Assembly: GCA_014239585.1 (NCBI GenBank)
Contig: JAAZYP010000001.1
Location: forward strand, 7,752 to 71,751
Length of the DNA: 64,000 nt
Source of the DNA: Nanobdellota archaeon
GTDB lineage: Archaea; Nanobdellota; Nanobdellia; UBA10117; ARS21
Direction of reading: 5' to 3'
Below are positions 37,785-60,974 of the stretch, piece by piece (the stretch's first letter is position 1; the number at the start of each line of letters is the position of its first letter). Under the pieces are notes generated by a model, which saw nothing but the letters and a program-made list of their open reading frames with translations, did not search any database and was not told the origin of the DNA. Made by a program: the position numbers and the translations under genes.

Positions 37785-37811
37785 TTTAACTAATCAACGT
37801 TTCAGAGTTTT

Positions 37812-38192
37812 ATGAAAGCTAAAGGTTCTAATGCTGAACGGCAACTTGTTGAGATGTTTTGGGAGAAAGGTTATGCTGCTATTCGAGTTGCGGGTTCTGG
37901 GTCTTCTCGATTTCCCTGTCCAGATGTTTTGGCATCAAATGGACAAAAAACTTTTGCGGTAGAGGCGAAAGCCACCAAAACAAATTATCAATATTTTAGA
38001 AAGGATCAAATTGAACAATTGATTAATTTTTCTCAAACGTTTAATTCCGAACCGATTTTGGCAGTCAAATTTTCGACTAAATGGTATTTTTTCTATTTAA
38101 CTAATCTATCTATCACTAAAAACGGCGAATATGCTATTAAGAAAAAAGATGCTGAGGAAATAAGTATATCTTTTGAAGAATTAATCTCTTGA
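37812..38192 (+). CDS. hjc: Holliday junction resolvase Hjc
   Basis: KGSNAERQLV...GYAAIRVAGSG...PDVLA....FAVEAKATK catalytic pattern. Confidence 0.85.
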   Translation: MKAKGSNAERQLVEMFWEKGYAAIRVAGSGSSRFPCPDVLASNGQKTFAVEAKATKTNYQYFRKDQIEQLINFSQTFNSEPILAVKFSTKWYFFYLTNLSITKNGEYAIKKKDAEEISISFEELIS

Positions 38193-38441
38193 ACCAGTTA
38201 AAAATTCAGATAGTTCTTGAAGTATTTGTTCCTTACCAACGAAAATTACTGCAAATAGAATAAGGACTGAAAATAGTACTGGAGCAGCAATCAAATAGGT
38301 CAAAAGTGAATATTTTGTACCTTCGACTGTTGTCCAAAAAATTGAAGTCATATAAGAAAAAGAAATTGCGACAAAGGAAGTAAATGCTAATAGTGCAAAG
38401 TAGAATTGATTCTTATAATTATTGAACGTTTCTTTTCTCAT
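38181..38441 (-). CDS. Hypothetical small membrane protein
   Basis: 86 aa with 2-3 TM segments. ATGA-coupled to the upstream permease gene. Confidence 0.4.
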   Translation of the reverse strand: MRKETFNNYKNQFYFALLAFTSFVAISFSYMTSIFWTTVEGTKYSLLTYLIAAPVLFSVLILFAVIFVGKEQILQELSEFLTGSRD

Positions 38442-39385
38442 TTTTCTATTAATGCCAAGTCCTTAAAGAAAACTTGAGCGATTGATAATATGATTGGACC
38501 GATAATTATTCCAACAAGTCCGAGTATGCTCATTCCGCCGAATACTCCGACAAAAATAATTAGTGGATGTAATCGTGCTTTTCGACTCATTAAAATTGGT
38601 CTTAATGAATAATCTAAGATACTACCAATGATTATACCGTAAAGTATCAAACCAATTGAAGTCATTGTATCTCCAGCTGCAAAAATGATTAGACCTGCAA
38701 CTAAATAAAGCGCATAAGGTCCTACGACAGGTAAGAAGGATAGAATTCCGGCAACAAGTCCGGCCATTAGCGGGTAACCCAAATCAAACATATAAAATCC
38801 GAATCCCGCAACAAATGCTTGAATCATACCGATAAATAGCGTAACATAAACAAATGCATCTACGTTTTGTTGAATATTTGTGAGAACTTGCATTTTCTTT
38901 CGAGCAGGTAGAGGTAATGCATCTTCTGCCCAATTAATGACTTTTCGCCCATCCTTTAAGAAATAGAATAGAGATATGAAAAAGATTACACTGGAAAGCA
39001 TGAAGTAGGGTAATTGCAAGATTAAATTAGACAAATATTGAGACGTATTCAATACAAAGAATCTAATAATTTCATACGTGCTTGAAGAAAGATTATCTGT
39101 TTTAGAAGTTATAGTGTCATAAATATTCCAAATTTCATTCAAAATGAAATCGATACCGTTGTTGAATAAATATGCGATCACTCCAATAAAAAATATACAA
39201 ATTATCAGCGCAGATAAGGTTGGATTCAATTTATTATTCAATTTATTAAAGATCGGGTATGAAAAATAAGCAACGATTCCTGCGAAAATTAGTGGAGTTA
39301 AATAAGGCCAAGCAACAATAAATGCGAGAATACCAACAAACAAAGTTAGTCCCAATTCAGCTAGTTGTTTGTTCTGCAAAGCCAT
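38438..39385 (-). CDS. AI-2E family transporter (PerM/UPF0118-type permease)
   Basis: 315 aa with about 8 TM segments and a conserved G/P-rich region (LSFLPVVGPY). Confidence 0.8.
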   Translation of the reverse strand: MALQNKQLAELGLTLFVGILAFIVAWPYLTPLIFAGIVAYFSYPIFNKLNNKLNPTLSALIICIFFIGVIAYLFNNGIDFILNEIWNIYDTITSKTDNLSSSTYEIIRFFVLNTSQYLSNLILQLPYFMLSSVIFFISLFYFLKDGRKVINWAEDALPLPARKKMQVLTNIQQNVDAFVYVTLFIGMIQAFVAGFGFYMFDLGYPLMAGLVAGILSFLPVVGPYALYLVAGLIIFAAGDTMTSIGLILYGIIIGSILDYSLRPILMSRKARLHPLIIFVGVFGGMSILGLVGIIIGPIILSIAQVFFKDLALIEK

Positions 39386-39407
39386 GCTTAATTTTAGTTA
39401 TTCATAT

Positions 39408-40031
39408 TTATAATAGTTCTGCTAATTCAGATAAATCATTAATTATTATGTCGGGATTTTCAAGAATTATTTCTTTATGATTTCTTGAACCGAGCAAAAT
39501 TATTGATTTTGTCCCATACGCCTTTGCAGTTTTTACATCAACTTCGATATCGCCAATATATGCAACTATCTCTTGTTCAAGAATATCGGCCAATTTCTTA
39601 AGTGGTTCAGGATCTGGTTTCGGATTAACTACATCATCAACTGCAACAATCGCCTTGAAAAGTTTAGGATCAATACCTACAATTTTCAAATTATCAATAA
39701 CTTGTTGATGTTTTGCATTAGAAACTATTGCCAAATCATATTTTGATTTCAAGCGCAATAATGTTAAATTTACATTAGGTTTTAATTTAAATTTTGTAAC
39801 ATCCAATAACGATTGTTTATCCTCGAGAATTTTGTTCAATTTTCGACTAGTGAGATTGGGATAAAATTCTTGAACTAATTCTTTGGCAGGAACACCAATT
39901 AATGATTTTATCATATTTTTATCTACACGTAATAAATTATTTTTATGAAATGATTCATTAAATGCTGCAGCAAGTGCATCTTTACTATCCACAAGCGTAC
40001 CATCAAAATCAAATGCAACTATTTGTTTCAT
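39408..40031 (-). CDS. HAD-superfamily phosphatase
   Basis: Motif I FDFDGTLVDS, motif II SNA, and motif III/IV K...GD.E.D. Confidence 0.85.
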   Translation of the reverse strand: MKQIVAFDFDGTLVDSKDALAAAFNESFHKNNLLRVDKNMIKSLIGVPAKELVQEFYPNLTSRKLNKILEDKQSLLDVTKFKLKPNVNLTLLRLKSKYDLAIVSNAKHQQVIDNLKIVGIDPKLFKAIVAVDDVVNPKPDPEPLKKLADILEQEIVAYIGDIEVDVKTAKAYGTKSIILLGSRNHKEIILENPDIIINDLSELAELL

Positions 40032-41065
40032 AATTTAAACCTTAATTTAGCAAGTATACCTTTGAGTCCATTTAACTTTTTACCTGCTGAACTAGTTGAA
40101 TTAATAATTGTTATAGATCCACCATTATTTTCAACACTATCTAAGATTTTACCCATCTCTTCTGAATCCATCAATTTTTCAGTCAAAACTAATTCATCAA
40201 TCGCGCCCAAATCGGTAGCAGATTTAACATTCTTTAAACCGTAAATAATAAGTTCTGAACGTTTGGCGATTAATTCAAGAAATTCGTTAACAATTTTCTC
40301 ATCTTTAGCAAGTTTACTATCTTTAATTATTCGTTCAAGGACTTTACCTGAAATTATTTCACGAATTCCGGATTCGTCTCCATCTGAAACATCTTCCAAA
40401 TTAATTTTGCTTGCAACATCCTTATTTAATTCAAGAACTTTTTTCTGAACGATTTCTTTCCAGAAAAGTGGACTACCCAAAATTATTGTATCCACTTCGT
40501 AAGATTCATAATTTTTTATAATATTTTTTGCTACGCGAGCAATATCCTTTTCGCCCTGATTTTTATTTTCTTTATATCTTTTTTTAGATAATCGTAAATT
40601 TAATTGACCGAGTTTAGTGTAACCAGATGCAGTAATGTGTGCAAAAGATGAAATTTCATCATCTAAAACACAGATAAGTGCCTTTGGAGCTTTTGAAGCT
40701 AATTCAGCTTCCTTAATTAATGTTAATTGATAAGGTTTCCAGGATTCTTTATTGATTTCAATTTCACTACCTTCTTCAAAATCAATTGAATGAGATGAAT
40801 TGAAAGCAATACCTTCAATTTCACTTTCTACAGATCCATTAATTCTAAATTTTGATCCAATTTCTATCTGTTTAACGCGCACTGAAACCCATATTGATTT
40901 TTTAACTGATTTTTGACGACCACCTTCGGCACCAAATTTGATTTTTCTACTACTTTTTCCGCGAACAATATCTTCCTTTTCAATGATTTGTTTTAGATAT
41001 AGAAAATCATCCATCGAATCGAGTCTAAGTACAACGCGGTTCTCGCTTTTTGACAAGAATTCCAT
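40028..41065 (-). CDS. pelA: Pelota (Dom34-like mRNA surveillance factor)
   Basis: From ATG 41065 the protein starts MEFLSKSENRVVLRLDSMDDFLYLKQII. It has an eRF1-like central and C-terminal domain. The track ORF's 32 extra N-terminal codons were rejected. Confidence 0.85.
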   Translation of the reverse strand: MEFLSKSENRVVLRLDSMDDFLYLKQIIEKEDIVRGKSSRKIKFGAEGGRQKSVKKSIWVSVRVKQIEIGSKFRINGSVESEIEGIAFNSSHSIDFEEGSEIEINKESWKPYQLTLIKEAELASKAPKALICVLDDEISSFAHITASGYTKLGQLNLRLSKKRYKENKNQGEKDIARVAKNIIKNYESYEVDTIILGSPLFWKEIVQKKVLELNKDVASKINLEDVSDGDESGIREIISGKVLERIIKDSKLAKDEKIVNEFLELIAKRSELIIYGLKNVKSATDLGAIDELVLTEKLMDSEEMGKILDSVENNGGSITIINSTSSAGKKLNGLKGILAKLRFKL

Positions 41066-41081
41066 GGTTTTTAAACAAAAA

Positions 41082-41094
41082 CTATATATTAAAA
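41082..41094. promoter_or_regulatory. TATA-like element placed to serve both divergent genes (pelota and the envelope operon)
   Basis: CTATATATTAAAA is centred about 23 nt from the pelota ATG (41065, minus strand) and about 24 nt from the ATG at 41112 (plus strand). The intergenic region is only 46 bp. Confidence 0.5.
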
Positions 41095-41111
41095 GGTTGC
41101 CAGATAAGTTT

Positions 41112-42272
41112 ATGCGTAAACGAGGTGTCCAGACGTTACCGAGCCCGACTGCATCAGTCACTGTGTTAGTCGTTTTGGCAGGATTTTTATTATTCGTTTT
41201 ATCTATCCCAGAAATTGATAGACAAGAATTAATTACAAATAATCAGGCTTCAATCGAAGAAATTGTATTATTTTCTAAAGAAAACATTAAATTTGATGGA
41301 TATTCGGGATTGACTAAAGATATATTAAATTTTTCAGACTTTACGCTAGACGGGACCAATCGTCTGGAAAAAACATTAATTGCTTCAGATTTTGAATTAA
41401 ACTCAAATTTATTTAAAACATCAAATTTCGAGTTTTCATTTACTCCCAATTATGATTCGACAACAATTGGACACCAAATCACCTTTGATGTTGATTCAGT
41501 AAATGGATACGGAAAAATTAAAGTATATCTAAATGGTGATGAAATTGGATCATTTGAACCCAATGAGGGACAAACTTTAAATTTAGAATTACCAAATTCA
41601 GAATTAATTGGTGGATTAAATCAAATTAAAATAAGTGGAAAATATATTGGATTAAATCCATTTAATGGTCTAAAATTAGCTCTTACTAATTTAGCAATTT
41701 TAGAAAAGAAACAAGGAATTGAGCTTGAAAAAACTCTAATGTTTTACTTACCTGAAGATCAAATAATTGATTCAGCAAAAGTTAACTTTTTGATGAGAAA
41801 TTTGGGAGAAACAATGCAATCGCCAATTATTGTTTATTTGAATTCTAATGAAATATTCCAAATTAGTTCCCCAGGTTCAGTATATTTTTCATTACCTGTT
41901 TCAAAAATTAGTTCCGAAATGAATATTATAAAATTTGTAATTGATAGAGGAAGCGAATTTGAAGTTTTGTTCCCAAAAATTACCACTTATACTTCTCGAG
42001 AATCAGCGGTAAAAAATTACCAATTTAATATAGATCAAACGGAGGCGAGATTAGTTACTGAAGGAAGAGCAAGTTGCAGTTTAAATTTAAACTCAGATGA
42101 TGAAGATGCTGAAATCGAAGTAGTTATTAATGGATTTTCAAAATTAATACATTTGGAAAATGAAAATTATGAAGAAAATATTTGTGATAATTTAGTTTAT
42201 GGAACAAATAATATTTATTTATCTTCAGATAAGTCCTTCGATCTAAACGAAATCGTAATTAAATTATATTAA
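41112..42272 (+). CDS. Envelope operon protein 1: signal-anchored protein with three internal repeats
   Basis: From ATG 41112: MRKRG, then a hydrophobic anchor (VTVLVVLAGFLLFVLS). It has three modules sharing an I.V(Y/V)(L/I)N(G/S)..I ... N.I(K/Y). pattern. No family recognised. Confidence 0.6.
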   Translation: MRKRGVQTLPSPTASVTVLVVLAGFLLFVLSIPEIDRQELITNNQASIEEIVLFSKENIKFDGYSGLTKDILNFSDFTLDGTNRLEKTLIASDFELNSNLFKTSNFEFSFTPNYDSTTIGHQITFDVDSVNGYGKIKVYLNGDEIGSFEPNEGQTLNLELPNSELIGGLNQIKISGKYIGLNPFNGLKLALTNLAILEKKQGIELEKTLMFYLPEDQIIDSAKVNFLMRNLGETMQSPIIVYLNSNEIFQISSPGSVYFSLPVSKISSEMNIIKFVIDRGSEFEVLFPKITTYTSRESAVKNYQFNIDQTEARLVTEGRASCSLNLNSDDEDAEIEVVINGFSKLIHLENENYEENICDNLVYGTNNIYLSSDKSFDLNEIVIKLY

Positions 42273-42273
42273 T

Positions 42274-44193
42274 ATGGGACTTAAAGATTGGTTCAAAAAT
42301 AAAGCATCTTCACTAAATAAAGATAAAATTAAAGAAAAAACAAAAGATGCAGTTTCGTGGAGTTGGTCAGGAACTAAAAAAGCCGCACCAGTTGCAGGTG
42401 CTTACGTGCTAGGAAAAGCCGCAGCTGCTAAAGATACCACTAAATCTTTCTTTTTTACGGGAATTGGCGGAAGAATTACGGGGGTATTAATCGTATTTTT
42501 ATTTGCAAGCATGGGTTTCGTGAGCGGATATCCATTATATGTTGTGGCATGGATGGGTGGTCAAATCTGGGGAGGATTTAATTTAATAGCTTATCAAGTT
42601 CCATCTCTTATGCCGGTACCAGACTTCTTTTTTACTTCAGCAGCACAATTTACAAAGGGCTCAGTTGGTGCAATTTTAAATGCAATTTTCGGAATGCAAA
42701 TAATAAAACAAAGTAGCATTAGGGGGTTCATAAGGTCATTATTGTCAGTATCGTTCATGTGGGTTTGGATAAGTATGGTGTTTGTAACAGTATATACTGG
42801 ATACTATCCAGTTATTGCTGATGGACCATCACCCATAGGATTGTGCGGATTACATCAAACCGCAAACGATATGATTGGTGCTGACCCAATAAGTTGTGAT
42901 CCATATGACTTAGGATTACAAACAAATCGATTTGCAGATCAATTAGAAGATAATGAATTTATCGATTTACTCTTCAGTCCATTGTTGATAAAAACCGATC
43001 AAGGATCTTATTTTGAATCAGATCGCATAGATACGAATTATTTGACAAATGAAGATGCGGGATCAACAATTAGTAATTTGGGTTCAACTGAATCAACATA
43101 TTCATATTATGAAGGTGAAATACCAGTGGAAACACAAGATATTGAAATTTCAGGGAAATTAACTTCAAAAACATTGTTTATTGGCGGAAGTGGCACAGGT
43201 GAACAATACATAAACATAACTTTGACTCCGGAAATTGATCAGATACAATGTTCTTGTGAAGATTTAACTTGTAAACCATTAAGTGACGAAGTAGTTGACG
43301 GATTCAGATCTATAATCTCACAAAATGAATATAATATTGATAATGCGAATACTTGGTGTTCAATGCCTTGGACATGTAATATTCCTGGAGCAGAAAAAAT
43401 TGAAGATAACACATTTAGAGTAAAAAGCGCAGTTAACCAACAAATTGAATGTATTCATGACGGATTAGCGATAAATGATTCAAAATTAACAAGTTCTAAG
43501 ACTGGAAGGAAAAGATATGGCGGATTGGGAAGACAATTTTATGTAGATCTGGGATTCGCTTACGATACTTCAGCAATTGTCACAAAACAACTATTAATCA
43601 TAGATAGATCGGTTGTAGAATCGCACGAAGATCCAATAACATATTTGAATTTAGATAATAGTGTAACTGAATCTAAATCAGTAACTGATGGAAAAGTAGA
43701 ATTCGGAATAGGTATAGATAAATCTGAAGATTATTTGGTACCGAATTATGCGGGAGATTCAATTCCAAATACTGTAAAATTAGGAATAAGTATAAACAAC
43801 CCGAGATCTTCAAAAGGAGATATATCTAATTTAAAGATTATTTTGAAAGTTTATCCAGCTAATGAACATATACAATTTGTATGTGATTCTCCAGATTTCA
43901 GCAATGTGGCAGAAGAATGGAGTTTAAATAACCCCTGTTCAGTAGGCGAAAATACAGGAAATTTCAAGTTTAACGGAAATAAAGATGGATATTCAGAATT
44001 TGTTTTAGAGTCATCACGGGCAATAGACTTTGTAAACTCAGATGATAGTGAGACATTTTTCTTAACAATGTTTGTTGATGAAGACTCATTAGTAAGTGCG
44101 AGTTATCAAGGAATATATGTTAGATCGGACGTATCATATACTTTTGAAAGTATCTTATCTACAGATTTCCGTGTATCTCCAAGCAAGTTTTAG
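42274..44193 (+). CDS. Envelope operon protein 2: polytopic membrane protein with a Cys-containing ectodomain of about 450 aa
   Basis: 639 aa. The start is 1 nt after the previous stop. It has a basic amphipathic N-terminus, 3-5 hydrophobic segments (aa 65-185), then a long hydrophilic domain with many Cys. No family recognised. Confidence 0.6.
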   Translation: MGLKDWFKNKASSLNKDKIKEKTKDAVSWSWSGTKKAAPVAGAYVLGKAAAAKDTTKSFFFTGIGGRITGVLIVFLFASMGFVSGYPLYVVAWMGGQIWGGFNLIAYQVPSLMPVPDFFFTSAAQFTKGSVGAILNAIFGMQIIKQSSIRGFIRSLLSVSFMWVWISMVFVTVYTGYYPVIADGPSPIGLCGLHQTANDMIGADPISCDPYDLGLQTNRFADQLEDNEFIDLLFSPLLIKTDQGSYFESDRIDTNYLTNEDAGSTISNLGSTESTYSYYEGEIPVETQDIEISGKLTSKTLFIGGSGTGEQYINITLTPEIDQIQCSCEDLTCKPLSDEVVDGFRSIISQNEYNIDNANTWCSMPWTCNIPGAEKIEDNTFRVKSAVNQQIECIHDGLAINDSKLTSSKTGRKRYGGLGRQFYVDLGFAYDTSAIVTKQLLIIDRSVVESHEDPITYLNLDNSVTESKSVTDGKVEFGIGIDKSEDYLVPNYAGDSIPNTVKLGISINNPRSSKGDISNLKIILKVYPANEHIQFVCDSPDFSNVAEEWSLNNPCSVGENTGNFKFNGNKDGYSEFVLESSRAIDFVNSDDSETFFLTMFVDEDSLVSASYQGIYVRSDVSYTFESILSTDFRVSPSKF

Positions 44194-44230
44194 ACATAAG
44201 ATATAAAAACAATGAAGAACATTCAAACAC

Positions 44231-45256
44231 ATGATAAAACCGGCAAAATTAGCCATACTGTTCGTTTTGATAGTATTATTTAGTGGATGTACTGATACTA
44301 CAACTGAAGATACTACTACGTCAGATGCAAATGGTGTCGATTTTGATATTTATGCGGATACTTTACAAGCAAAACAATATGAGGGGCAAGCATTCGGATT
44401 TCAAGTTCTAGCAGAAAATGAAGGTAGTTATAATATACCTCAAACTCATTTCAAATTATTCCTGGAAGGAATAAATCCAATAACGTATGGATTAACCGTA
44501 GAAGATTTCATTAAAGAAAATACATTGGAATTAACTTCCATTGGAATATATAATGATGAATTATCAATTCGAGGACAGGAAGTATTTTCATTTGAAAATT
44601 TATGTTATAAAAACGATTTAGATAGTAATCTTAAATTAGATATACATCTCAGATCCTGTTATAGTTATGAAACAAGTGCAAAGGTTGGAGCATGTTTTGG
44701 TGAAGCATATTCTCAATTTAATGAAATTTGTACTGTAACTGAGAGCAAAACCGTAACTAATTCAATTTCACCAGTAAAAGTAACTGAAATTTATGAAAGT
44801 GGTGCAGGAGGAGATGACTATAGATTTATTGTAAAAGTTGCAAATCAGGGTGACGGAAAAGTATTTTCAAGATATGCTACTGCACGAGATAATCCGACAA
44901 CACCTTTGGACACCACAATTTCAAATTCAATGAAATCCTGTACTGATCTATCACCGGGATTAAATGATATGGTTTATGTCGAAAGTATAAAATTAGACGG
45001 TGCAGAATTACTTGGAACATCAGAACTTGTACTTGAAACAAAACTTACTGACGCGAATGTAGCGAGTAATAATCCGAATAAAGGTAATTATTTCAATTTA
45101 GTTGATGGCAGAGGACAATTTATATTCAAATTAACAGAAGTAACAGATGTAGATTACGTCGGAACATTAGAAATAGTTTTAGGATACGGATACACTGAAA
45201 CTACAGTTCGAAATACAGAACTGATTGCATTGCCTGATGTAGTTCCAGAGTGTTAA
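44231..45256 (+). CDS. Envelope operon protein 3: predicted lipobox-anchored surface protein
   Basis: MIKPAKLAILFVLIVLFSGC signal with a lipobox-like LFSGC. Paralogous to the next gene. Confidence 0.6.
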   Translation: MIKPAKLAILFVLIVLFSGCTDTTTEDTTTSDANGVDFDIYADTLQAKQYEGQAFGFQVLAENEGSYNIPQTHFKLFLEGINPITYGLTVEDFIKENTLELTSIGIYNDELSIRGQEVFSFENLCYKNDLDSNLKLDIHLRSCYSYETSAKVGACFGEAYSQFNEICTVTESKTVTNSISPVKVTEIYESGAGGDDYRFIVKVANQGDGKVFSRYATARDNPTTPLDTTISNSMKSCTDLSPGLNDMVYVESIKLDGAELLGTSELVLETKLTDANVASNNPNKGNYFNLVDGRGQFIFKLTEVTDVDYVGTLEIVLGYGYTETTVRNTELIALPDVVPEC

Positions 45257-45258
45257 CT

Positions 45259-46206
45259 ATGAAATTAAAACAGATATTTTCAGTATTGTTAGTAATATTA
45301 ATTAGTGGATGTATTGGCGGTGGAGTTGAATCAGAATCACCAGTTATACAGGGAGACTCAGGAGTAGAATTTGAAATCCAAAATCTTCCTAGCGGAGTAA
45401 GAAGTAATACAGATTTAGCGTTTACAGTATTAGCAACAAATTATGGCGGATATTCAGTACCGATTGGCGCAATTCAAATCAGATTAGCCAATACAAATTT
45501 CTTTGAAACAATTCTAACCGAAGATTTAGATCAAAGTAAATTGACGGGGAGTACAAATGCTCTAACAAACGCAGTACCTTTATCAAAAAGAATTCCCGAG
45601 TTAAATAGAGGAGATGTAATCTTTTTTGAGTATGATCCAGTAAAATTCAAATTACCCGGAATTCCGGGTGATAAAACTTCATTATCGGTAGATACGTGTT
45701 ATTATTATCAAACAGATGGATTAACTGATATTTGTATATCTGATGATAGTTATGGTGAAATCTGTAATGCGGTTGGAGCGAAAGAAACATTTTCTTCAGC
45801 ATCATCATTAAAAATTGTGGGAGTAGAACAATTGAATAGTCTAAAAACTGGACCCCCTGCTTTAGCTAATATCCGTTCAACAATTAAATTCAAAATCAAA
45901 TATGTGGGAGATGGAACAATTAACTCAAAATCAAATGACTTTACTTGTTCAGATATAGACTTAACTCCAAATTCAATAAGATTAAATTCAATAAAAATTG
46001 GAAGCCAAATTGTTGAAGATATTGATGATTCTTGCGGAGGATCGGATGTAATTTATTTAGATGAACTCGGTGAAGCGTCAATCACATGTAGTTTATTGAC
46101 ATATGCTGGATGGACAACTCAATTGGGCGAATTCAATGAACGTTTAACTTTTAGCGTAGACTATGTTGAAAATAAAATAATTTCAAAAGATTTATCAATT
46201 ATATAA
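45259..46206 (+). CDS. Envelope operon protein 4: predicted lipobox-anchored surface protein, paralog of protein 3
   Basis: From ATG 45259: MKLKQIFSVLLVILISGC. Motifs shared with protein 3 are GV(D/E)F(D/E)I, F.VLA.N.G.Y..P and CY.Y.T. Confidence 0.6.
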   Translation: MKLKQIFSVLLVILISGCIGGGVESESPVIQGDSGVEFEIQNLPSGVRSNTDLAFTVLATNYGGYSVPIGAIQIRLANTNFFETILTEDLDQSKLTGSTNALTNAVPLSKRIPELNRGDVIFFEYDPVKFKLPGIPGDKTSLSVDTCYYYQTDGLTDICISDDSYGEICNAVGAKETFSSASSLKIVGVEQLNSLKTGPPALANIRSTIKFKIKYVGDGTINSKSNDFTCSDIDLTPNSIRLNSIKIGSQIVEDIDDSCGGSDVIYLDELGEASITCSLLTYAGWTTQLGEFNERLTFSVDYVENKIISKDLSII

Positions 46207-46219
46207 TTCATTGAAAGTT

Positions 46220-46777
46220 ATGCACCCTTTAGATAATATTTATTCGTGTAATTTATGTCAAGACCTTACTAAAAATCGCATTCAAGTTGTTGTCGGAGAC
46301 GGTAATTTAACTCCAAACATACTCTTTATTGGTGAAGCACCTGGAGCACAAGAAGATATTGAAGGAAAACCCTTTGTTGGACGTTCAGGAAAAATTCTCA
46401 GAAATGCACTCTCAGAATTGAAAATTAGTGATTTTTATATTACCAATTTAGTAAAATGTAGGCCTACAAATAATAGAGACCCAACTTCAGAAGAATCAAA
46501 AAATTGTTTTCCTTATTTAAAGTTACAACTTAAACAATTAAATCCAAAAATAATTTGTACACTGGGAAGACATTCAACTAAAAAACTTCTAACGGCAAGT
46601 GGAATTGATATGAAAACAATTACTGCTCACCGGGGAACTAAAATTGATATATCTATTGACGGGGTAAAATATTTGTTATTGCCAATGTATCATCCTGCTG
46701 CAACAATTTATAATCAAAAATTAAAAGAAAATTTTATTTCTGATCTAAAGAAATTATCCGATATAGCTGGTATCTGA
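46220..46777 (+). CDS. udg: Uracil-DNA glycosylase, family 4 type
   Basis: Motifs GEAPGAQEDIEGKPFVGRSGKIL and HPAA, with four Cys spaced as in Fe-S family-4 UDGs. The first ATG is at 46220; the track ORF starts at TTG 46211. Confidence 0.85.
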   Translation: MHPLDNIYSCNLCQDLTKNRIQVVVGDGNLTPNILFIGEAPGAQEDIEGKPFVGRSGKILRNALSELKISDFYITNLVKCRPTNNRDPTSEESKNCFPYLKLQLKQLNPKIICTLGRHSTKKLLTASGIDMKTITAHRGTKIDISIDGVKYLLLPMYHPAATIYNQKLKENFISDLKKLSDIAGI

Positions 46778-47557
46778 AGATTTGTTATACATTCGCTTTA
46801 CTGTTTTTGAAAGAACTTTCTTTTGATCTTCAATACTTTTAACTTTCTCTTTAGCTTCACGTTTAATTTCTTTATCTAAATCAGATAATTTTACATCAAC
46901 TTCTAAAATATCTTTCAAAGCTTTCAATAAAGCTTTAGATTCCTTTAAACCTATATGAAATTGATGTCCAAAAGTTTCAACTAATAGCGAAATACCATAT
47001 ATTTTTTTGAATTTACTGAGACCCAAAATTAAACCAGTTGCACCAATAATTGCATCTGCCTTTATTTTTTTGAAATTTACTTTATTTGTTAATTTTGCAA
47101 ATCGTTCTTTAGCAAGTTCACTATTTGCAACACCATAAACTTTGGGATTATCTGGTTCAGTTCCAAGACCAATTCCTCCCAGAGTTATAAGTTCCTTACA
47201 ACCATGTTTATGTGCCAATTCAACAATTAAATTGCTGAATTCATAACTTGATTCTTCATCAACAGGTTGTACATCACCCGATAATAACATTAAATCACGA
47301 TTTTTTAATTTAACAGAATATAAAGTTACAGAAGGTAGTTCGATTAAATTATCATCATTAACAAAAACTGAATGCGGAAAACTTGTTGAGTAGATATTAT
47401 ACATGATTTTATGATCTAATTGATCTATTAAAAAATCAACTGCAATTTTACCCACATTACCTATCCCAGGAAGACCTTCGATCAAAATGGGATTTTTTAA
47501 TTTTCTTGAAGCTTCAATTTGCCGCTTAACAATCCATTTATTCATAATTTTAGTCAT
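46754..47557 (-). CDS. PAC2-family (proteasome assembly chaperone-like, COG1938) protein
   Basis: IEGLPGIGNVGKIAVDFLI motif. Confidence 0.75.
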   Translation of the reverse strand: MTKIMNKWIVKRQIEASRKLKNPILIEGLPGIGNVGKIAVDFLIDQLDHKIMYNIYSTSFPHSVFVNDDNLIELPSVTLYSVKLKNRDLMLLSGDVQPVDEESSYEFSNLIVELAHKHGCKELITLGGIGLGTEPDNPKVYGVANSELAKERFAKLTNKVNFKKIKADAIIGATGLILGLSKFKKIYGISLLVETFGHQFHIGLKESKALLKALKDILEVDVKLSDLDKEIKREAKEKVKSIEDQKKVLSKTVKRMYNKSSDTSYIG

Positions 47558-48321
47558 TTCATAATTAAAGATCCATTTTTTAGATGTTTAGTTAATCTTA
47601 CCTCCAAACTTGAAATTAATTTTTGAGCGATTTTACCATTCTCGTGCTCCAGTATAAATTTGTATTTAGGTGCACCGATATATTTAACTTTAAGAGTACC
47701 ACCTTCCCTTTTTATGAATGAAATTGAATCACTTATACCTTTTCTAATTTTAGATAAACCGTTTGAATCTTTAGATTCCATTAATACGTTCACTTTGAGA
47801 ATTGTATTTTTTGGCTTAATTCTGGAAGATATAACTTTCAGTAAATTAGTTTTTGTAACTTTATCTAATTTTAATTCATCAATTAATAATTCATCTCTAA
47901 TTAGTTCTTCAAAAAAAGGGTAGATCAAATTATATTTTTTCGAAACCGGAAGTCCAATTTTTTTGAATAATTCTGAATACTTTTTGTTAGTTGATTTAGC
48001 TAATTGTGAGATAATTTCATCTGCAATTTTTTCGTTCTTAAATTCCTCTTGTTTAGTTCGTTCTTGACCAGCACCAACTTTTCTTAAGGACAAATTTATT
48101 CCACTTTTATCTGAAGATATAACCTTGCATACAAATTTTCTACCCCGTTTAAACAACACACGCATAGTTCTAACTTGTTTTCTGTGCATTTCTGAAGTAT
48201 ATAAAATTCCCTTAATTTTATTGTATTCATCCAAATTAAATTCGATTTGATGTTGTGATATTTTTGATACTGTTCCAATTACAAAATCGTCAATATCGGG
48301 TAAATCATCTCGAAGATACAT
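47554..48321 (-). CDS. eif2a: Translation initiation factor 2 alpha subunit
   Basis: N-terminal S1 domain, then helical and alpha-beta domains. Conserved position after rps27e. Confidence 0.9.
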   Translation of the reverse strand: MYLRDDLPDIDDFVIGTVSKISQHQIEFNLDEYNKIKGILYTSEMHRKQVRTMRVLFKRGRKFVCKVISSDKSGINLSLRKVGAGQERTKQEEFKNEKIADEIISQLAKSTNKKYSELFKKIGLPVSKKYNLIYPFFEELIRDELLIDELKLDKVTKTNLLKVISSRIKPKNTILKVNVLMESKDSNGLSKIRKGISDSISFIKREGGTLKVKYIGAPKYKFILEHENGKIAQKLISSLEVRLTKHLKNGSLIMK

Positions 48322-48326
48322 TGAAT

Positions 48327-48515
48327 TTAATTAAGTTCTTTAATCACTTTTCCACCAGTAATATTTATTTTTCCACCAGTAGAATATGCAAGCTTAGTTT
48401 TACACACCAAACAAACTAGTTCTTTACTTGATGCTCGTTCAAATAGAACTTGCTCATTTTTACATTTTGAACATTTAATTTTCAAAAATTTTGTTGAAGT
48501 TTCATCTAATTTCAT
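48327..48515 (-). CDS. rps27e: Ribosomal protein S27e
   Basis: C4 zinc ribbon: CSKCKNEQVLF......CLVCKTKLA. Confidence 0.9.
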   Translation of the reverse strand: MKLDETSTKFLKIKCSKCKNEQVLFERASSKELVCLVCKTKLAYSTGGKINITGGKVIKELN

Positions 48516-48811
48516 TATACTAAATTTGCCTTTTTAATTCGACTAAATGCTTTTACGTGCGCCTTATTACAAATATCGCAAGTATATACAAATGTTGCTT
48601 TCGTAGTTTGTTTATGTTTTGTAGCAGCTTTAGCTCGAGGCATTCCTCCATAACCAGCCATAATTTTGAAAATTCTTCTAGCTCCACTATTCAGTGCGTT
48701 CTTTTTTGTTTTTGGACGAGCTTTGTTCTTCAAAAGTTTGATCTTGTGCATTGTGTGTTTCTTGCACTTTTTTGAAGGACAGAATGTCCGTGTTTGTTTT
48801 GGAAATTTCAT
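48515..48811 (-). CDS. rpl44e: Ribosomal protein L44e
   Basis: MKFPKQTRTFCPSKKCKKHTMHK ... GYGG ... CDICNK. Confidence 0.9.
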   Translation of the reverse strand: MKFPKQTRTFCPSKKCKKHTMHKIKLLKNKARPKTKKNALNSGARRIFKIMAGYGGMPRAKAATKHKQTTKATFVYTCDICNKAHVKAFSRIKKANLV

Positions 48812-49484
48812 TTTGACTATCTATATCACCTGTGATCACTTCATTTTTAAGTTCTTCGATAGGTTGATTTAAGTCAGATGGATCTAAGTCTAATGGTTTT
48901 TTATCTCCAATTTTTCCCTGAGTCAATAATATATCAGATATCGATTGAGGTATAGATACAATATCTCCGCGCGAAAAAGGCCCAAATTTGTTCATATCTG
49001 GACCAAAAAATTCAGGAATGGTTTCTTGAGCATAATATTCCGTTGATTTAATTTCAGATTTATTCACCGAGGTTAGGCTATCACTTTTTTCAATAGTCTC
49101 CAATATTGATTTTCGAGATGTTTGTAAGAGTTTAATCAATTGATCATACAATATTTCTTCAGCATTCAGCATGTTACTCGTATCTCGCATCGAATCATCG
49201 CTTCTACTATTAAATACTGCACGTGAAATAACTTTTCGCTCTCTTCGCTCTAACATATCTTTAACTACGCGTGTAGCATTAGATAATTCAACTTGAATTT
49301 TAGCTCGATTCGTAGTAGAAAATAAATTTAATGATTGATCTTGATTTTTTGTTTCATCATTTTTTTCTTCGAAATATTTCTTGATACGTTTAAGATCATC
49401 AATAGTCAAAGTTTGTAAGTCTGAAGAGTATTGTTCATTTCTAAACAGTTCATAAATATCTTCGTAAGTAAATGCATCACCCAT
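48687..49484 (-). CDS. GINS-like protein (Gins51/15 type) with a long C-terminal tail that overlaps rpl44e
   Basis: Helical N-terminal domain plus a B-domain-like ..FGPFSRGDIVSIPQSISDILLTQGKI. It sits next to the primase gene, as gins15 does in other archaea. The last 125 nt overlap rpl44e in another frame. Confidence 0.55.
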   Translation of the reverse strand: MGDAFTYEDIYELFRNEQYSSDLQTLTIDDLKRIKKYFEEKNDETKNQDQSLNLFSTTNRAKIQVELSNATRVVKDMLERRERKVISRAVFNSRSDDSMRDTSNMLNAEEILYDQLIKLLQTSRKSILETIEKSDSLTSVNKSEIKSTEYYAQETIPEFFGPDMNKFGPFSRGDIVSIPQSISDILLTQGKIGDKKPLDLDPSDLNQPIEELKNEVITGDIDSQNEISKTNTDILSFKKVQETHNAQDQTFEEQSSSKNKKERTE

Positions 49485-49532
49485 AGTTATTTGTCAAAGA
49501 TTACTTTAAGTACATTCATATATTTCAGAATA

Positions 49533-50783
49533 TTATTTGGATTTGAAAGAAACATAAGTTAATGGGTTTTTTATTTTTTTACAAGTATTATCTGGAAAAC
49601 ACACACCTATTTCTTGATAATGAGCTTTACAATTCGGAGGCGGAACGACTTTATTCTGTTTTTGATGCCAAGATAGTTGAGATTTTATATACCCCTTTTT
49701 CAAAGGAGGTTTGTTTTTAGAATTCCAATCATATATTTTAGCTTCCAAATCATGCCAATCCATATCAAAATTTTTGTAAAAATTAATTAATGAAAATAAC
49801 GCTCGTTTACGACCATCCTCCAACCCATTCAAAATTCGTTTCATGCAAGGCGGGAATATTTCATCCTTAAGTTCCAATTTAACAAAATCATATTTTTTTG
49901 TTGAAGATTCTTCTTCATCCAAATTTATGCCTGTAAATAAGTTTTTAGCTTCATTCTTTACAGATTTTGATCTATCCAAAAATATTTTCATATTATCGAC
50001 ATTTTCGGGTTTAGCATCATCAAATTCAAATTTTTCAATATTTTTCTCATCGATTACTATTGAGACTAAGCCCCTTTTTTCATGAAGACTATATGGGCTC
50101 CGTATAAGATGTCTGGGACTTGCCATTGCGAGATCAATATCCATCAATTTCAAAAAATTTATTTTATTATTTTTACTTATTTCATCTTTACTCTTACTTG
50201 TTTTTCTAAGAATCTCACTTAAATTAGATTCATAATAACTGGAATTTATATTATTGAGATAATCATTCAAATCAGTCTTTATTTTTTTCAAAATTCTGTC
50301 TAATAAAATAGGAAATGTTTTCCTAATTTCAACTTTTCCTGCAAAGATATATTCTGGAAATGACTCGGCAGGAACACCAATGTGCCAACCCTTATTTCCT
50401 GAAAATTTAACGCCAATATTTTTCACACCCTGACTCTTTAGATATTCAACTATCAATCTTGCAGTTTTTCGAGAATATTCAAACCACGGACAGTCGATAT
50501 CTATGATTAAATCCCAACTTTCACGTAATTCCGACATAAAATGTTCAGTGCTTTCACTACTCAATCTTAACGGATCAGACCAGTTTTCAACAGAAATATG
50601 AAATGAAGTAACTCCAGATCTTGCAAAATTAGAAACATCTTTTGGAAACTGTAAAACGTTTGGACGTTTACCAAATCCACCTGAAACCAATCTTACTGCA
50701 ACTTCTTTATTTTCTGAAGCTTTAACTATTGCCAATCCGACATCTTGACGCGAATACCAACGAATAATATCGGATTGTTTCAT
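49533..50783 (-). CDS. priS: DNA primase: PriS catalytic domain fused to a PriL-CTD-like Fe-S module
   Basis: AEP catalytic motif DLIIDIDCP with downstream SGNKGWHI. The C-terminal module is FPPCMKRILNGLEDGRKRALFSLINFY plus Cys in PPPNC, GVC and NTC. Confidence 0.8.
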   Translation of the reverse strand: MKQSDIIRWYSRQDVGLAIVKASENKEVAVRLVSGGFGKRPNVLQFPKDVSNFARSGVTSFHISVENWSDPLRLSSESTEHFMSELRESWDLIIDIDCPWFEYSRKTARLIVEYLKSQGVKNIGVKFSGNKGWHIGVPAESFPEYIFAGKVEIRKTFPILLDRILKKIKTDLNDYLNNINSSYYESNLSEILRKTSKSKDEISKNNKINFLKLMDIDLAMASPRHLIRSPYSLHEKRGLVSIVIDEKNIEKFEFDDAKPENVDNMKIFLDRSKSVKNEAKNLFTGINLDEEESSTKKYDFVKLELKDEIFPPCMKRILNGLEDGRKRALFSLINFYKNFDMDWHDLEAKIYDWNSKNKPPLKKGYIKSQLSWHQKQNKVVPPPNCKAHYQEIGVCFPDNTCKKIKNPLTYVSFKSK

Positions 50784-50808
50784 AAAACTTTTTCATAGTT
50801 AAGAGTTA

Positions 50809-57527: not shown

Positions 57528-59555
57528 ATGGTAAAATCAAAAAAATTGTTGAGTATATTACTGTTAATTCTAGTAAGTTTAACTGCAGTAGCTGCAACCG
57601 TGGTATCAAATGTATCTGTTAGTACAGATATTAATAATTCAAATGTAAATCATGCGGGAAGCAAATCCGGAACATTAACATTTTCAAATGATGATTTATC
57701 TTCAAATTATACTGTAGATATAAGTGGAACAACTTCAAATTCAGGAATCACTTTAACGTTAGATACAACTTCCTTATTTGTTAATACTAATTCTTCAAGC
57801 ACCGCAACATATTCGGTAGCCGCAGATCAATACACGCCAAATGCAACATATACATATACTATTAATTATTCAGATAGCTCAAATTCATCAGATACTAATT
57901 CAGAAACATTTTATTTAATTGTACCTGAAGACAAAACAATTACAAAAACTGTTGATTCGGAAGAAACAATTTCTAGAGGAAATTCAGAAACATTTTCAAT
58001 TTTATTAAATAATACGGGAAATGTAAATGCAGGTTGGACTAACATATCATACCCCAATTTGAAATTAAATTGGGATCAGGAAGTTAATTTAACTGGTTCA
58101 AATACAAATACGCCATCAACTTTAACGGCAGGAAATTCAGAGTATTTGAATGTAACATATACAACTTTCAATACAAGTAATAGTAAAACTGAATACGGTA
58201 TTTATTCTGGAATATTAACCTACGATGACGAAGATGGAGCATCACAATCCATAAATTTAGAATTATCTGTATTTGAAAATTCACACGATTCTCGATTGGA
58301 AATCACTGCAAATTTTGAAGATATAACAAATGATGATACGGATACATATCCTGGAGACATAGTGCGGATTGAAGATATTGAAATAAATAACGATTATACG
58401 AACAATAATGATGATAGCATAACCGATATTGAATTAGAATATCGAGTATATTTAGCTGCAGACGGTGATGATATGGTTGATGAAACATATTCAGAAACCT
58501 TTGATTTAGAAGAAAACGAAGATTCAAATAACTTTGATATTGATTTTCAAATTCCTTTTGATGCAAAAGAAGGAGATTATATTATTGAATTAGTTGCAAC
58601 CGGGGAGGTTTCTTCAGATGGAACCGATGATGGTGATGAAATATCTAATAGACTTTACCTTGAATTTAATGTTGATAAAGAATCAAGACATATGATTCCA
58701 AAAACACTAATTTCTGATGATTATTGTCCTGGTGAAATTGCAGAATTAAATATCGAATTAGTAAATATTGGAACAAACGATCTAGATGAAGATGACGATA
58801 TGTTGGTTCGAGTAAAGATACCGAGTTTTGAGTATGACCAATGGCACAATTACACTGAAAATATTGATGCAGGAGATACTGAAACAACAACAATTAATGT
58901 AGCTATTCCTTCGAACGCAGCAACAGGAAATCATGAAGTTAAAATTTATTCAAGACATGATGGAAACTCAAATTCTAATAAAGATGGTTCGTATTTATTA
59001 CAAACTTTAACTCTGAGTTCAACATGTGCGGGAACTGCAAGTTCAGATACAACAATACTTTCCGGACAAAGTTCAGAAGAAGGTACACAAGGAATGAACA
59101 CTAAGTATATTTTAACAGTTACAAATAACGGAGATTCAGCAGTAACTTATGAAGTTGAAGCAATAGGTGTTGACGCATGGGGTGCAGCAGTAATAACTCC
59201 TGAAACATTAAGTGTTCCAGCAGGTGAAACTTCAACGTTCAGTGTTTATTTACAACCTGGCGAAAATGCACAATCAACGAATAACGCAGTAATTAACTTG
59301 AAATCCGGAGGTGAAGTTGTCGCATCAAAAACATTAACTCTAACAATTTCAGGAATAAGTATTTCAACATTTACCGATGCATTGTTTGGAAACACTTTTT
59401 CTGAATTAGGAGATACATCAATTGTAACACTTATTTCATTATTGATTGTTCTTGGAACAGCAGGCGGTGCAATTTGGTTAGTGCATGGCGATCAAATCAG
59501 ATCTTCACAAAAAAAGAAAAAAAGAAAATCTTCAAAGAAAAAATCACGAAGATAA
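57528..59555 (+). CDS. Surface (S-layer-like) protein 1: signal peptide, N-X-S/T-rich, acidic CARDB-like domains, C-terminal TM and polybasic tail
   Basis: Signal MVKSKKLLSILLLILVSLTAVAA, very many N-X-S/T sequons, ..LLNNTGNVNAG.. type beta-sandwich motifs, and the end ..IVLGTAGGAIWLV..KKKKRKSSKKKSRR. Confidence 0.65.
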   Translation: MVKSKKLLSILLLILVSLTAVAATVVSNVSVSTDINNSNVNHAGSKSGTLTFSNDDLSSNYTVDISGTTSNSGITLTLDTTSLFVNTNSSSTATYSVAADQYTPNATYTYTINYSDSSNSSDTNSETFYLIVPEDKTITKTVDSEETISRGNSETFSILLNNTGNVNAGWTNISYPNLKLNWDQEVNLTGSNTNTPSTLTAGNSEYLNVTYTTFNTSNSKTEYGIYSGILTYDDEDGASQSINLELSVFENSHDSRLEITANFEDITNDDTDTYPGDIVRIEDIEINNDYTNNNDDSITDIELEYRVYLAADGDDMVDETYSETFDLEENEDSNNFDIDFQIPFDAKEGDYIIELVATGEVSSDGTDDGDEISNRLYLEFNVDKESRHMIPKTLISDDYCPGEIAELNIELVNIGTNDLDEDDDMLVRVKIPSFEYDQWHNYTENIDAGDTETTTINVAIPSNAATGNHEVKIYSRHDGNSNSNKDGSYLLQTLTLSSTCAGTASSDTTILSGQSSEEGTQGMNTKYILTVTNNGDSAVTYEVEAIGVDAWGAAVITPETLSVPAGETSTFSVYLQPGENAQSTNNAVINLKSGGEVVASKTLTLTISGISISTFTDALFGNTFSELGDTSIVTLISLLIVLGTAGGAIWLVHGDQIRSSQKKKKRKSSKKKSRR

Positions 59556-59567
59556 ATCATACTCCGT

Positions 59568-59583
59568 TCCGAAGTACTTCGGA
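59568..59583 (+). promoter_or_regulatory. 16-nt perfect palindrome between surface genes 1 and 2, overlapping a GGAGG ribosome-binding-like motif
   Basis: TCCGAAGTACTTCGGA. GGAGG at 59581-59585 lies 10 nt upstream of ATG 59595. Confidence 0.5.
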
Positions 59584-59594
59584 GGAAATATAAA

Positions 59595-60881
59595 ATGGAA
59601 AAAATATTACAAAAAACAATGACAGCATTTCTGGTATTATTAACTTTAATGATTCCAGTAAGTGCAGGTACTGCTGGCGTAGGAAGCGCAGGCACAATCA
59701 CTGAAGGTGATAGTACAGTAACTATCTCTTTCCCATATACGGGAGTAACTTCAGCTGCGGCAGAGTCCGTAACTTTAGTAGTTAGTGGCGCAGCATTACC
59801 AACACAAACACAAACGGTTACATTAGATCCAGTTAGCTCTGGTGCTAGCGGAACTGCAAGTGCAACATTCGTTGTTAATAGCGATTTAGCTGCTTCAAGC
59901 AGTCCTTATTCTATTACATTAGTTGCAACAAGTGCAGGTACCAATACAACTGTAGTTACTGATCTTTCAGGAACCGTTAGTTTGACTGTAAACGCTGCAA
60001 CTTCAGAAGAAGCTTGTTCAGCATTGATTACAAATGATGGCGAACTTGAAGATGAATACAACCCAGGTGACACTGTTACGATCGAACTCGAATTAGAGAA
60101 CGAAGAATGTGGCGGATCAACTTGGACAGACGTAGTTTTTGAAGCATGGTTAACGGATAGCAATGGAAGAATTTCTAGTGTTGACGATACTGCAGAATTC
60201 AATCTAGGCGACGAAGAAGAAGATACGCTTCGATTCAGTTTTGATCTAGAAGATGATGCAGATGCAGATGAAACTTATCAAGTAGTTGTAAGAGCAACAG
60301 CAGATGAAGCTGCAGAATATTTGTGGATGTCCGCAGATAATGAATTCAGTTTCGATGTTGAAAGAGATGAACATAGTATTTTAGTTACTTCTGTTCAATA
60401 TGATGCAAGTACACAAGCAGGTGAAACTGTTGATGTAGCTGTAACAATATTGAATAATGGAGAAGGCGACGAAGAAAATGTTCAAGTAACTCTTTCAGTA
60501 GCTGGAGCAACACAAACTTCAAGTTACTTCACTATTGAAGAAGACGAAGAAGTAGTTCGATACTTTACTTTAACTGTTCCAAATGGAGCAAGTGGTGAAG
60601 ATTTATTGGTAGTTCGAGCAGCTAACGCAGATGCATCAGATTCCTATTCAGGAAGCATCAGTGTTAACGCAGCAGCAAGTGGTTCAGATAGTTTAACTGA
60701 AGAACAAATCGAAGCATTACTAGACGCAAGATTGTCAAGTGGTGACGGAGACGAAGGTATCTCAGTTGCATGGATTATTGCAGGTCTATTAATTGTTTGG
60801 ATGTTACATCAAAACGGTTGTGGATTAAGAAGAACTAAACCAACTCGTGGACGAAAAAAGTCTAAGAAAGTTTACTATTAA
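59595..60881 (+). CDS. Surface (S-layer-like) protein 2: signal peptide, Ala/Thr/Ser/Asp/Glu-rich, C-terminal TM and basic tail
   Basis: Signal ..AFLVLLTLMIPVSAG. It shares two domains with protein 1 (PGD.V.IE..., ...ATADE/ATGE; F.V.....H...). The end is ISVAWIIAGLLIVWML..RRTKPTRGRKKSKKVYY. Confidence 0.65.
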   Translation: MEKILQKTMTAFLVLLTLMIPVSAGTAGVGSAGTITEGDSTVTISFPYTGVTSAAAESVTLVVSGAALPTQTQTVTLDPVSSGASGTASATFVVNSDLAASSSPYSITLVATSAGTNTTVVTDLSGTVSLTVNAATSEEACSALITNDGELEDEYNPGDTVTIELELENEECGGSTWTDVVFEAWLTDSNGRISSVDDTAEFNLGDEEEDTLRFSFDLEDDADADETYQVVVRATADEAAEYLWMSADNEFSFDVERDEHSILVTSVQYDASTQAGETVDVAVTILNNGEGDEENVQVTLSVAGATQTSSYFTIEEDEEVVRYFTLTVPNGASGEDLLVVRAANADASDSYSGSISVNAAASGSDSLTEEQIEALLDARLSSGDGDEGISVAWIIAGLLIVWMLHQNGCGLRRTKPTRGRKKSKKVYY

Positions 60882-60885
60882 AGTT

Positions 60886-60918: not shown

Positions 60919-60974
60919 ATGACTAGTTTATAGCATAAATATTTATATATCGTTTTCATTAAATCTCAAGTGAT

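Follow-up and report, generated by a model that had tools for sequence, protein, structure and literature searches.

Four adjacent genes in a window of 64 kb from a Nanobdellota archaeon (the whole stretch of DNA analysed here) encode proteins predicted to be membrane-bound or exported, called P1 to P4, which lie together at the same chromosomal position in every relative recovered, and evolve faster than the genes around them. The four open reading frames (ORFs) are all on the plus strand, and are separated by gaps of 1, 37 and 2 nt. None of the four families is represented in Pfam, NCBIfam or PDB, and the parts from which they seem to be built, jelly-rolls, CARDB-like immunoglobulin (Ig) domains and lipobox anchors, are familiar at the fold level. 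P1-P4 may together make up an assembly on the cell surface of Woesearchaeota-type DPANN archaea, non-enzymatic and lineage-specific, involved in glycan binding, adhesion or the organization of the envelope, a reading to which we would give about even chances. Woesearchaeota are abundant, uncultivated and genome-reduced, and presumably live in dependence on other cells.

The distribution of the set was monitored by word-indexed searches over 5.8 billion proteins, and by running a P2 profile with HMMER exhaustively over 1.84 billion cluster representatives. The former retrieved 8 relatives of P2 and 18 of P3/P4, all unannotated; the latter 36 relatives of P2 at E <= 0.001, the distant ones aligning by the ectodomain only. 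A metagenome scan using patterns from distant P2 sequences returned no matches. Marine and salt-marsh metagenomes yielded the relatives of the locus, and the named ones are metagenome-assembled genomes of 'Candidatus Woesearchaeota archaeon'. Genomic context was recovered for close, intermediate and distant members, and about 10 divergent loci show the full set. Wherever a locus is of sufficient length, the layout is the same, with pelota on the minus strand followed by P1, P2, P3 and P4 on the plus strand. All four orthologues were confirmed by hidden Markov model searches, and partial loss was observed in no locus. All related loci recovered thus preserve the gene order, the conservation of which had been left open in a preliminary description of the window, even where protein identity falls to about 25-30%. 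Residence at the same locus in every relative recovered, across genomes with housekeeping proteins only about 40% identical, makes P1-P4 look like core envelope equipment, and not a strain-specific decoration. An apparent P1-P2 fusion in one locus (L007, around 5900-6000) was discarded as artefactual, being due to N-masked sequence in the GTDB copy, and so was a gap in P4 in another (L008).

In none of the loci examined does the gap between P1 and P2 fall outside -1 to 6 nt, and the P2-P3 spacer measures 30 to 382 nt. In locus L014 a 94-aa ORF, found in that clade only and having no Pfam match, is located on the opposite strand between P2 and P3 (11689-11973, minus strand). Each P3 or P4 best-matches its own paralog type across loci, and the duplication is therefore older than the sampled lineages.

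Among close relatives P1-P4 are 55-70% identical, flanking genes 78-90%. In the most distant loci, where pelota is 37-44% identical to that of the window, the figures are 25-36% and 36-56%, respectively. P1-P4 hence evolve faster than their neighbours, as usual for surface proteins. The four genes are part of a collinear block which includes, in relatives, Hjc, an 86-aa membrane protein, AI-2E, HAD, pelota, P1-P4, PAC2, eIF2alpha, S27e, GINS and primase. The block spans about 13-20 kb (approximately 37800-50800 in the window; L001, L004, L014, L016, L017 and L018), and is ordered despite 36-56% protein identity, PolX coming next in most loci. Synteny over such a distance is unusually stable for archaea. 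The right-hand neighbour of the four genes changes, being either a uracil-DNA glycosylase (UDG) or an MJ0043_C protein, and genes on the pelota side have been inserted or lost in L014 and L016; P1-P4 are never broken. The hypothesis of a mobile or viral module was rejected, because no relatives occur in IMG/VR, the GC content is window-like, and the module occupies one and the same chromosomal position in every locus.

P3 and P4 are paralogs, as originally proposed (BLASTP 2e-8; hhalign probability 99.8%, E 2e-28 over 280 columns with wide profiles), and feature signal peptides ending in LFSGC and LISGC, respectively. S-G-C is found at the end of the signal peptide in 15 of the 16 aligned P3/P4 sequences. 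The canonical lipobox reads [L/V/I]-3 [A/S/T/V/I]-2 [G/A/S]-1 C+1 (PMC12462473). P4 carries I-S-G-C, the P3 orthologues have L, V or F at -3, and only the Phe of the F-S-G-C of the window P3 departs from the motif in the two proteins of the window. Both would be covalently lipidated on the lipobox Cys. In the L018 orthologue of P4 (11047-12132) the lipobox Cys is missing, and a hydrophobic helix, LILIIIIAVAVGAVIYL, is found in its place. The swap of a lipobox for a transmembrane helix indicates that membrane tethering is the feature kept. Other invariant features of P3/P4 are four additional Cys, the motif CY.Y.T and the strand pattern E-N-.-G, and the invariant residue types are Cys, Tyr, Asn and Gly. 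Beyond the lipobox Cys, P3 and P4 have six Cys each; P2 has ten, so that the number of ectodomain Cys is even in all three proteins. Cys125 and a C-terminal Cys of P3 are either both present or both absent across orthologues, as expected of a disulfide.

The AlphaFold model of P3 (predicted local distance difference test, pLDDT, 66; predicted template-modelling score, pTM, 0.68) is all-beta, and consists of two beta-sandwiches. Foldseek searches with this model retrieved generic tandem Ig-like structures only, among which integrin legs, Fabs, complement MG domains and factor XIII barrels. TM-scores were below 0.25, implying that P3 has no specific relative among them. The first domain of P3/P4 looks CARDB-like. 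The P3 family consensus scored 24.8 bits (cutoff 22.7; E 2.6e-5) over profile positions 8-48 of 101, the P4 consensus 19.6 bits (E 1.1e-3), and native P3 and P4 sequences gave no CARDB match at E <= 1. In L018 (8001-10986), P2 (P0074) and P3 terminate with similar Cys-rich tails (...GCAWGES and ...GCNWES), and in the clade of L014, L019 and L021 an extra Cys-rich region of about 270 aa is found at the C-terminus of P4 (L014, 13152-14912). Such extensions might be a common module for docking or sorting. The preliminary description had taken the C-termini of P2, P3 and P4 to look related; this kinship was not sustained by hhalign, which returned probabilities of 0.1-1.7% with narrow and wide profiles, and detected no signal between P1 and the other three proteins with either type of profile.

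P1 has a single strongly hydrophobic segment (aa 14-32), followed by three internal repeats, in agreement with the signal anchor and the repetitive structure initially recognized. The best-conserved stretch among close relatives comprises the anchor and a juxtamembrane IPE.DRQE motif. Repeats 1 and 2 were aligned by hhalign with a probability of 96% (E 1.5e-9; seven-sequence alignment including distant orthologues). The third repeat is weaker (E 0.003-0.008), yet it shares the same LNG...G.N register, and residues invariant in the family are located at equivalent positions of the repeats (N141/N244/N340, N170/N271/N366, G168/G364). The repeats carry v.v.LNG..i ... L..G.N.i.i, the signature of galactose-binding-domain jelly-rolls. 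Near-threshold Pfam matches were obtained with native P1, three distant orthologues and the family consensus, and involve BetaGal_gal-bd, BetaGal_ABD2, CBM-like, CE2_N and BcsB; the best scores relative to the gathering cutoffs are 25.4/27.3 for BetaGal_gal-bd, 26.1/27 for CBM-like, 21.7/23 for BetaGal_ABD2 and 14.6/21 for BcsB. Profile searches of PDB sequences with all the families returned no significant match, the best being a weak one to a CBM35 module, recorded for P1 repeat 1 (E 0.15). As no P1 match passes a curated cutoff, the repeats likely share the galactose-binding-domain fold, and are not to be counted as members of any of these families. P1, with its MRKRG... motif, was evaluated as a type IV pilin or archaellin, proteins which have a class III signal peptide, cleaved at [KR]-G/A directly ahead of the hydrophobic helix; the idea was dismissed, since the K/R-G motif is absent in the orthologues of L006, L014, L016 and L017. 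In the examined loci no gene for a pilus assembly ATPase or platform protein (PilC-type) was found.

P2 features a Lys-rich N-terminus and four predicted helices (64-83, 88-108, 118-145, which is amphipathic, and 148-175). All of its Cys residues are C-terminal to the last helix, in a region of about 460 aa. Basic N-terminus, transmembrane segments and Cys-containing ectodomain had all been noted before. Many relatives score one or three transmembrane segments after a long K/R-rich tail, and a mostly even number of ectodomain Cys; segments were counted by a crude hydropathy segment-caller that overlaps itself, and several relatives, some of them close, give other or even totals. A topology with the N-terminus in, the C-terminus out and the ectodomain outside the cell would fit. 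Members of the family have anything between 1 and about 5 helices, and the alignment of distant homologues is limited to profile positions ~250-639, which argues that the membrane part is not the conserved core. Within the clade of the window the membrane domain is conserved, and includes small-residue motifs (S79, G81, G85, P87, G129, G132, N136). In the wide family only Cys368, Cys393 and Gly480 are invariant; W366, F564, Y622 and Y624 are nearly so. The ectodomain motif WC...W.C is conserved, GLCG.HQ is clade-specific. A C-terminal beta-sandwich (aa ~430-627) is the sole domain modelled with pLDDT values of 60-83. No relatives of the ectodomain were found in Pfam, NCBIfam or PDB, even when the family consensus was used, and Pfam searches with 27 members of the family yielded spurious low-complexity or transmembrane matches only. 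That P2 may be an enzyme was considered in view of the GLCG.HQ and SCD motifs, and was rejected, because the motif is lost in distant members of the family, which argues against an active site. Throughout P1-P4, residues invariant family-wide are only Cys, Trp, Gly, Asn and aromatics, which fits non-catalytic proteins. The ectodomains of the four proteins are acidic, in contrast to tRNA synthetases and most of the sampled cytoplasmic proteins of the window, which are net basic (FtsZ is not). The four products are also richer in paired Cys than most of the cytoplasmic proteins sampled. The notion that all four products are membrane-bound or extracytoplasmic is supported by the predicted anchors and signal peptides.

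In the model proposed, P1 and P2 would be made from a translationally coupled gene pair, and both would reside in the cytoplasmic membrane, P1 being held by one N-terminal helix, P2 by about three, with its charged tail in the cytoplasm. Both would project outward beta-rich ectodomains, stabilised by disulfides. P3 and P4 would be exported, and tethered to the outer leaflet through an N-terminal lipid on the lipobox Cys, each carrying two Ig-like beta-sandwiches. Because they are ancient paralogs that have been retained, they would most likely act as a hetero-pair. The three galactose-binding-like jelly-rolls of P1 might provide a lectin-type surface, the most likely job of which would be glycan binding, the targets being those of a partner or host cell, or else of the glycoprotein coat of the cell itself. 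The complex would plausibly serve adhesion and envelope organization, and would be neither an enzyme nor a classical transporter. The preliminary description had envisaged attachment between cells or interaction with a host, or else a 'new envelope machine'; host attachment and the machine are both plausible. Somewhat doubtful is a bolder version of the model, according to which P1-P4 would be a distinct envelope machine and core equipment of Woesearchaeota, a lectin-like complex recognising and holding partner cells, or taking their material, with the tail of P2 coupling it to the cell interior.

Several observations weigh against a dedicated surface assembly. The AlphaFold2 model of P2 is poor (pLDDT 49, from an 8-sequence alignment), and its ectodomain lacks a recognisable fold match, since Foldseek found nothing below 1e-3 in PDB, and generic sandwiches for the last domain. 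The only CARDB match which passes the cutoff is that of an artificial consensus sequence, the galactose-binding-domain matches of native P1-family sequences all fall under the curated Pfam cutoffs, and the Phe at -3 in the lipobox of the window P3 does not conform to a strict [LVI] consensus. In addition, conserved order does not single out the four genes, nor prove that a complex exists, because the whole neighbourhood is collinear; synteny over 20 kb in relatives is weaker evidence for a machine than the preliminary description had assumed. Similarly, close spacing need not mean shared function, as UDG, an unrelated DNA-repair gene, is found equally tight behind P4. P1-P4 could be four unrelated surface proteins, kept adjacent by the collinearity of the lineage, which form no complex and share no function. 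The order of the flanking 15-20 kb, maintained at equal evolutionary depth, the location of the functionally unrelated UDG 4-13 nt behind P4, and the variable P2-P3 spacer, hosting an opposite-strand ORF in L014, all speak for this explanation, which we yet regard as unlikely. Mere collinearity does not account well for a P1-P2 junction always confined to -1 to 6 nt, for a block left intact where UDG and MJ0043_C genes replace each other and pelota-side genes change (L014, L016), or for the adjacency of P3 and P4 since before the divergence of the lineages, with partial loss in no locus.

It is rather improbable that P1-P4 make up the S-layer, or a membrane-proximal scaffold which anchors it. 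Typical S-layer proteins of archaea are acidic, evolve fast, are specific to a lineage and consist of arrayed Ig-like domains; P3 and P4 look CARDB-like, and the presence of the set in every recovered locus of sufficient length is what a core part of the envelope would exhibit. Yet S-layer proteins are large secreted glycoproteins, the most abundant of the envelope, which form a 2-D lattice, and have repeated Ig-like domains and usually a C-terminal anchor; Ig-like domains are present in the set, but P1-P4 are small (315-639 aa), are anchored N-terminally, and have only 0-2 N-glycosylation sequons. Genes located at 57528-63317 in the window, described below, are better candidates, being more similar to classical archaeal coat glycoproteins. 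Profile and fold searches gave no confident match to S-layer, pilus or ABC-binding families, which the preliminary description had named as matches that would refute it. Even less probable is that the four genes encode a machine for the uptake or exchange of host-derived lipids, glycans or nutrients, in which oligomeric P2 would form a conduit, and P1, P3 and P4 would capture substrates and hand them over. Many biosynthetic pathways are missing in Woesearchaeota, which are believed to rely on a host or on the environment (PMC11606122); moreover, the set resembles core equipment, the membrane domain of P2 is conserved and carries small-residue motifs in the clade of the window, and uptake systems usually combine a lipoprotein with a membrane protein. 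Genes for an ATPase, a permease or an energy-coupling protein were however not found in or beside the cluster, P2 spans the membrane with 1 to about 5 helices and is matched in distant members by its ectodomain only, and P3 is all-beta, unlike a Venus-flytrap binding protein.

The coordinates of the four genes, of their parts and of adjacent features are reported in Table 1. The junctions between genes are TAA-t-ATG for P1/P2, 37 nt for P2/P3, and TAA-ct-ATG for P3/P4. The gap of 2 nt is counted from the P4 ATG at 45259, a GTG at 45250 being likewise open. The ATG of pelota (41065, minus strand) is 46 bp from that of P1. Packing and distances are as read in the preliminary description. The spacer upstream of P1 is suggestive of a putative promoter directing a leaderless P1-P2 transcript, and the P2-P3 spacer may hold an internal promoter for P3-P4, and possibly UDG; TATA-like boxes located ~25 nt upstream of the start codons of P1 and P3 would be compatible with leaderless P1-P2 and P3-P4 transcripts. 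The window has ~32% GC, with no compositional break where the four-gene set sits. Its gene content is typical of DPANN, and includes aminoacyl-tRNA synthetases, FtsZ, SRP54, a HerA-like ATPase, pelota, eIF2alpha, GINS, primase and PolX.

Table 1. Position of P1-P4, of their domains and of flanking features in the window
Feature	Coordinates	Strand	Remarks
pelota	40028..41065	-	divergent neighbour, outside the module; Pelota_N/eRF1 domains at the orthologous position in all loci
divergent spacer, 46 bp	41066..41111		A/T-rich TATA-like box ctatatattaaaa at about 41082-41095, ~25 nt upstream of the P1 ATG
P1, 386 aa	41112..42272	+	N-terminal signal-anchor, then three jelly-roll-like repeats; orthologues in all loci
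P1 transmembrane anchor, aa 14-32	41151..41207	+	hydropathy 2.68; invariant columns P10-E39
P1 repeat 1, aa ~100-195	41409..41696	+	galactose-binding-domain-like; sub-threshold Pfam matches to BetaGal_gal-bd, BetaGal_ABD2, CBM-like and BcsB
P1 repeat 2, aa ~200-292	41709..41987	+	hhalign against repeat 1
P1 repeat 3, aa ~298-386	42003..42269	+	invariant Cys322/Cys358 pair; hhalign in register; CE2_N sub-threshold match
P2, 639 aa	42274..44193	+	Lys-rich cytoplasmic tail (predicted), membrane domain, Cys-rich ectodomain
P2 membrane domain, aa 64-175	42463..42798	+	AlphaFold secondary structure and hydropathy
P2 ectodomain, aa 176-639	42799..44190	+	family-wide conserved core; invariant columns
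P2-P3 spacer, 37 nt	44194..44230		TATA-like box gatataaaaa ~25 nt upstream of the P3 ATG
P3, 341 aa, predicted lipoprotein	44231..45256	+	signal peptide, lipobox LFSGC (nt 44276-44290), CARDB-like domain 1, second beta-sandwich
P4, 315 aa, predicted lipoprotein, P3 paralog	45259..46206	+	lipobox LISGC (nt 45298-45312)
UDG, family 4-type	46211..46777	+	4-13 nt downstream of P4; outside the module

Depending on whether its start codon is TTG or ATG, the UDG gene is separated from the P4 stop codon by 4 or 13 nt, respectively; the transcription unit hence probably continues past P4, and UDG is probably co-transcribed with the surface genes. The close clade and L016 likewise have UDG behind P4. 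It is replaced by a gene encoding an MJ0043_C domain in L014 and L017, and is therefore not part of the module. The view that the four genes are the lone surface module of the window had to be abandoned. A second surface cluster is located at 57528-63317 on the plus strand, and includes three ORFs (57528-59555, 59595-60881 and 60975-63317) encoding anchored Ig-like proteins of 675, 428 and 780 aa, respectively. Each features a signal peptide, Thr/Ser/Asn-rich Ig-like regions, a C-terminal transmembrane helix and a Lys/Arg-rich tail. NPCBM_assoc and FixG_C matches were found in the 675- and 780-aa proteins, and the former has 13 N-glycosylation sequons. Judged by these features, the three genes are better S-layer or coat candidates than P1-P4. 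A P-type ATPase and an AI-2E transporter are likewise encoded in the window. A two-helix membrane protein of 86 aa (38181-38441, minus strand), with no Pfam match, overlaps the end of the AI-2E gene, and proteins of 83-89 aa are found at the same position in all related loci.

The conservation of P1-P4 is striking, but the evidence so far points to no unexpected mechanism. Should the proteins be only a scaffold, or independent coat proteins, their description would be a useful, and unsurprising, annotation. In any case, four protein families are added to the 'dark matter' of DPANN, one of which has an unrecognisable ectodomain of 460 aa worth solving structurally. P1-P4 are concrete targets for metaproteomics, for imaging coupled to antibodies or fluorescence in situ hybridization, for glycan-binding assays with the P1 ectodomain, and for fitting into cryo-electron tomography maps.

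A literature search found no paper describing the four-gene cluster, and the preliminary description had stated that the four proteins belong to no recognisable families. The statement is correct in that no native sequence matches a Pfam or NCBIfam family at threshold. It is too strong at the fold level, given the jelly-roll features of P1 and the CARDB-like features of P3/P4. The first domain of P3/P4 resembles CARDB surface proteins (PF07705) in the f.v.v.N.G... strand pattern, and in the fold, an extracellular Ig-like beta-sandwich. Archaeal surface proteins with CARDB domains are of the 'COG1361 S-layer domain' type. P3 and P4 differ from CARDB proteins because they have an N-terminal lipobox, and not a C-terminal transmembrane helix, only 40 of the 101 profile positions are matched, and the second domain and four conserved Cys are specific to their family. 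The v.v.LNG..v ... L..G.N.i.v signature of P1 is shared with sugar-binding domains of beta-galactosidases, 'CBM-like' domains of polysaccharide lyases and carbohydrate-binding domains of the cellulose synthase subunit BcsB, and four orthologues and the consensus come near threshold with five families of the galactose-binding superfamily. As BcsB, P1 is predicted to be a single-pass membrane-anchored protein with tandem jelly-roll domains outside the cell. BcsB is anchored at the C-terminus. In contrast, the anchor of P1 is N-terminal, and no glycosyltransferase partner is encoded within the cluster.

Most of the archaeal lipoproteins known so far are solute-binding proteins, a class to which P3 and P4 do not belong; ABC substrate-binding lipoproteins, which have a two-lobed alpha/beta fold and an adjacent permease and ATPase, were considered and excluded, since the P3 model is all-beta, substrate-binding proteins of Pfam were not matched, and no ABC genes occur in the loci. 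P3 and P4 are similar to archaeal lipoproteins processed by the AliA/AliB pathway of Haloferax volcanii in carrying a Sec-type signal peptide ending in [LVIF]-S-G-C. Lipoproteins have been predicted to be prevalent in DPANN, and AliA (arCOG02177) has been found there (PMC12462473). Lipidation has been shown in Haloferax only.

The closest published analogues of P1-P4 are found in Nanobdella aerobiophila, in which an Ig-like S-layer candidate and lectin-like extracellular proteins have been proposed to mediate the interaction with the host (bioRxiv 10.1101/2023.10.27.564410). No sequence relationship was detected between these surface proteins and P1-P4. The Nanobdella candidates are single genes singled out by expression and fold, whereas P1-P4 are a set defined by deep conservation in an uncultivated marine lineage. 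In either case, orphan Ig-like and lectin-like proteins, recognisable by structure only, are encoded by a reduced archaeon of the ectosymbiont type.

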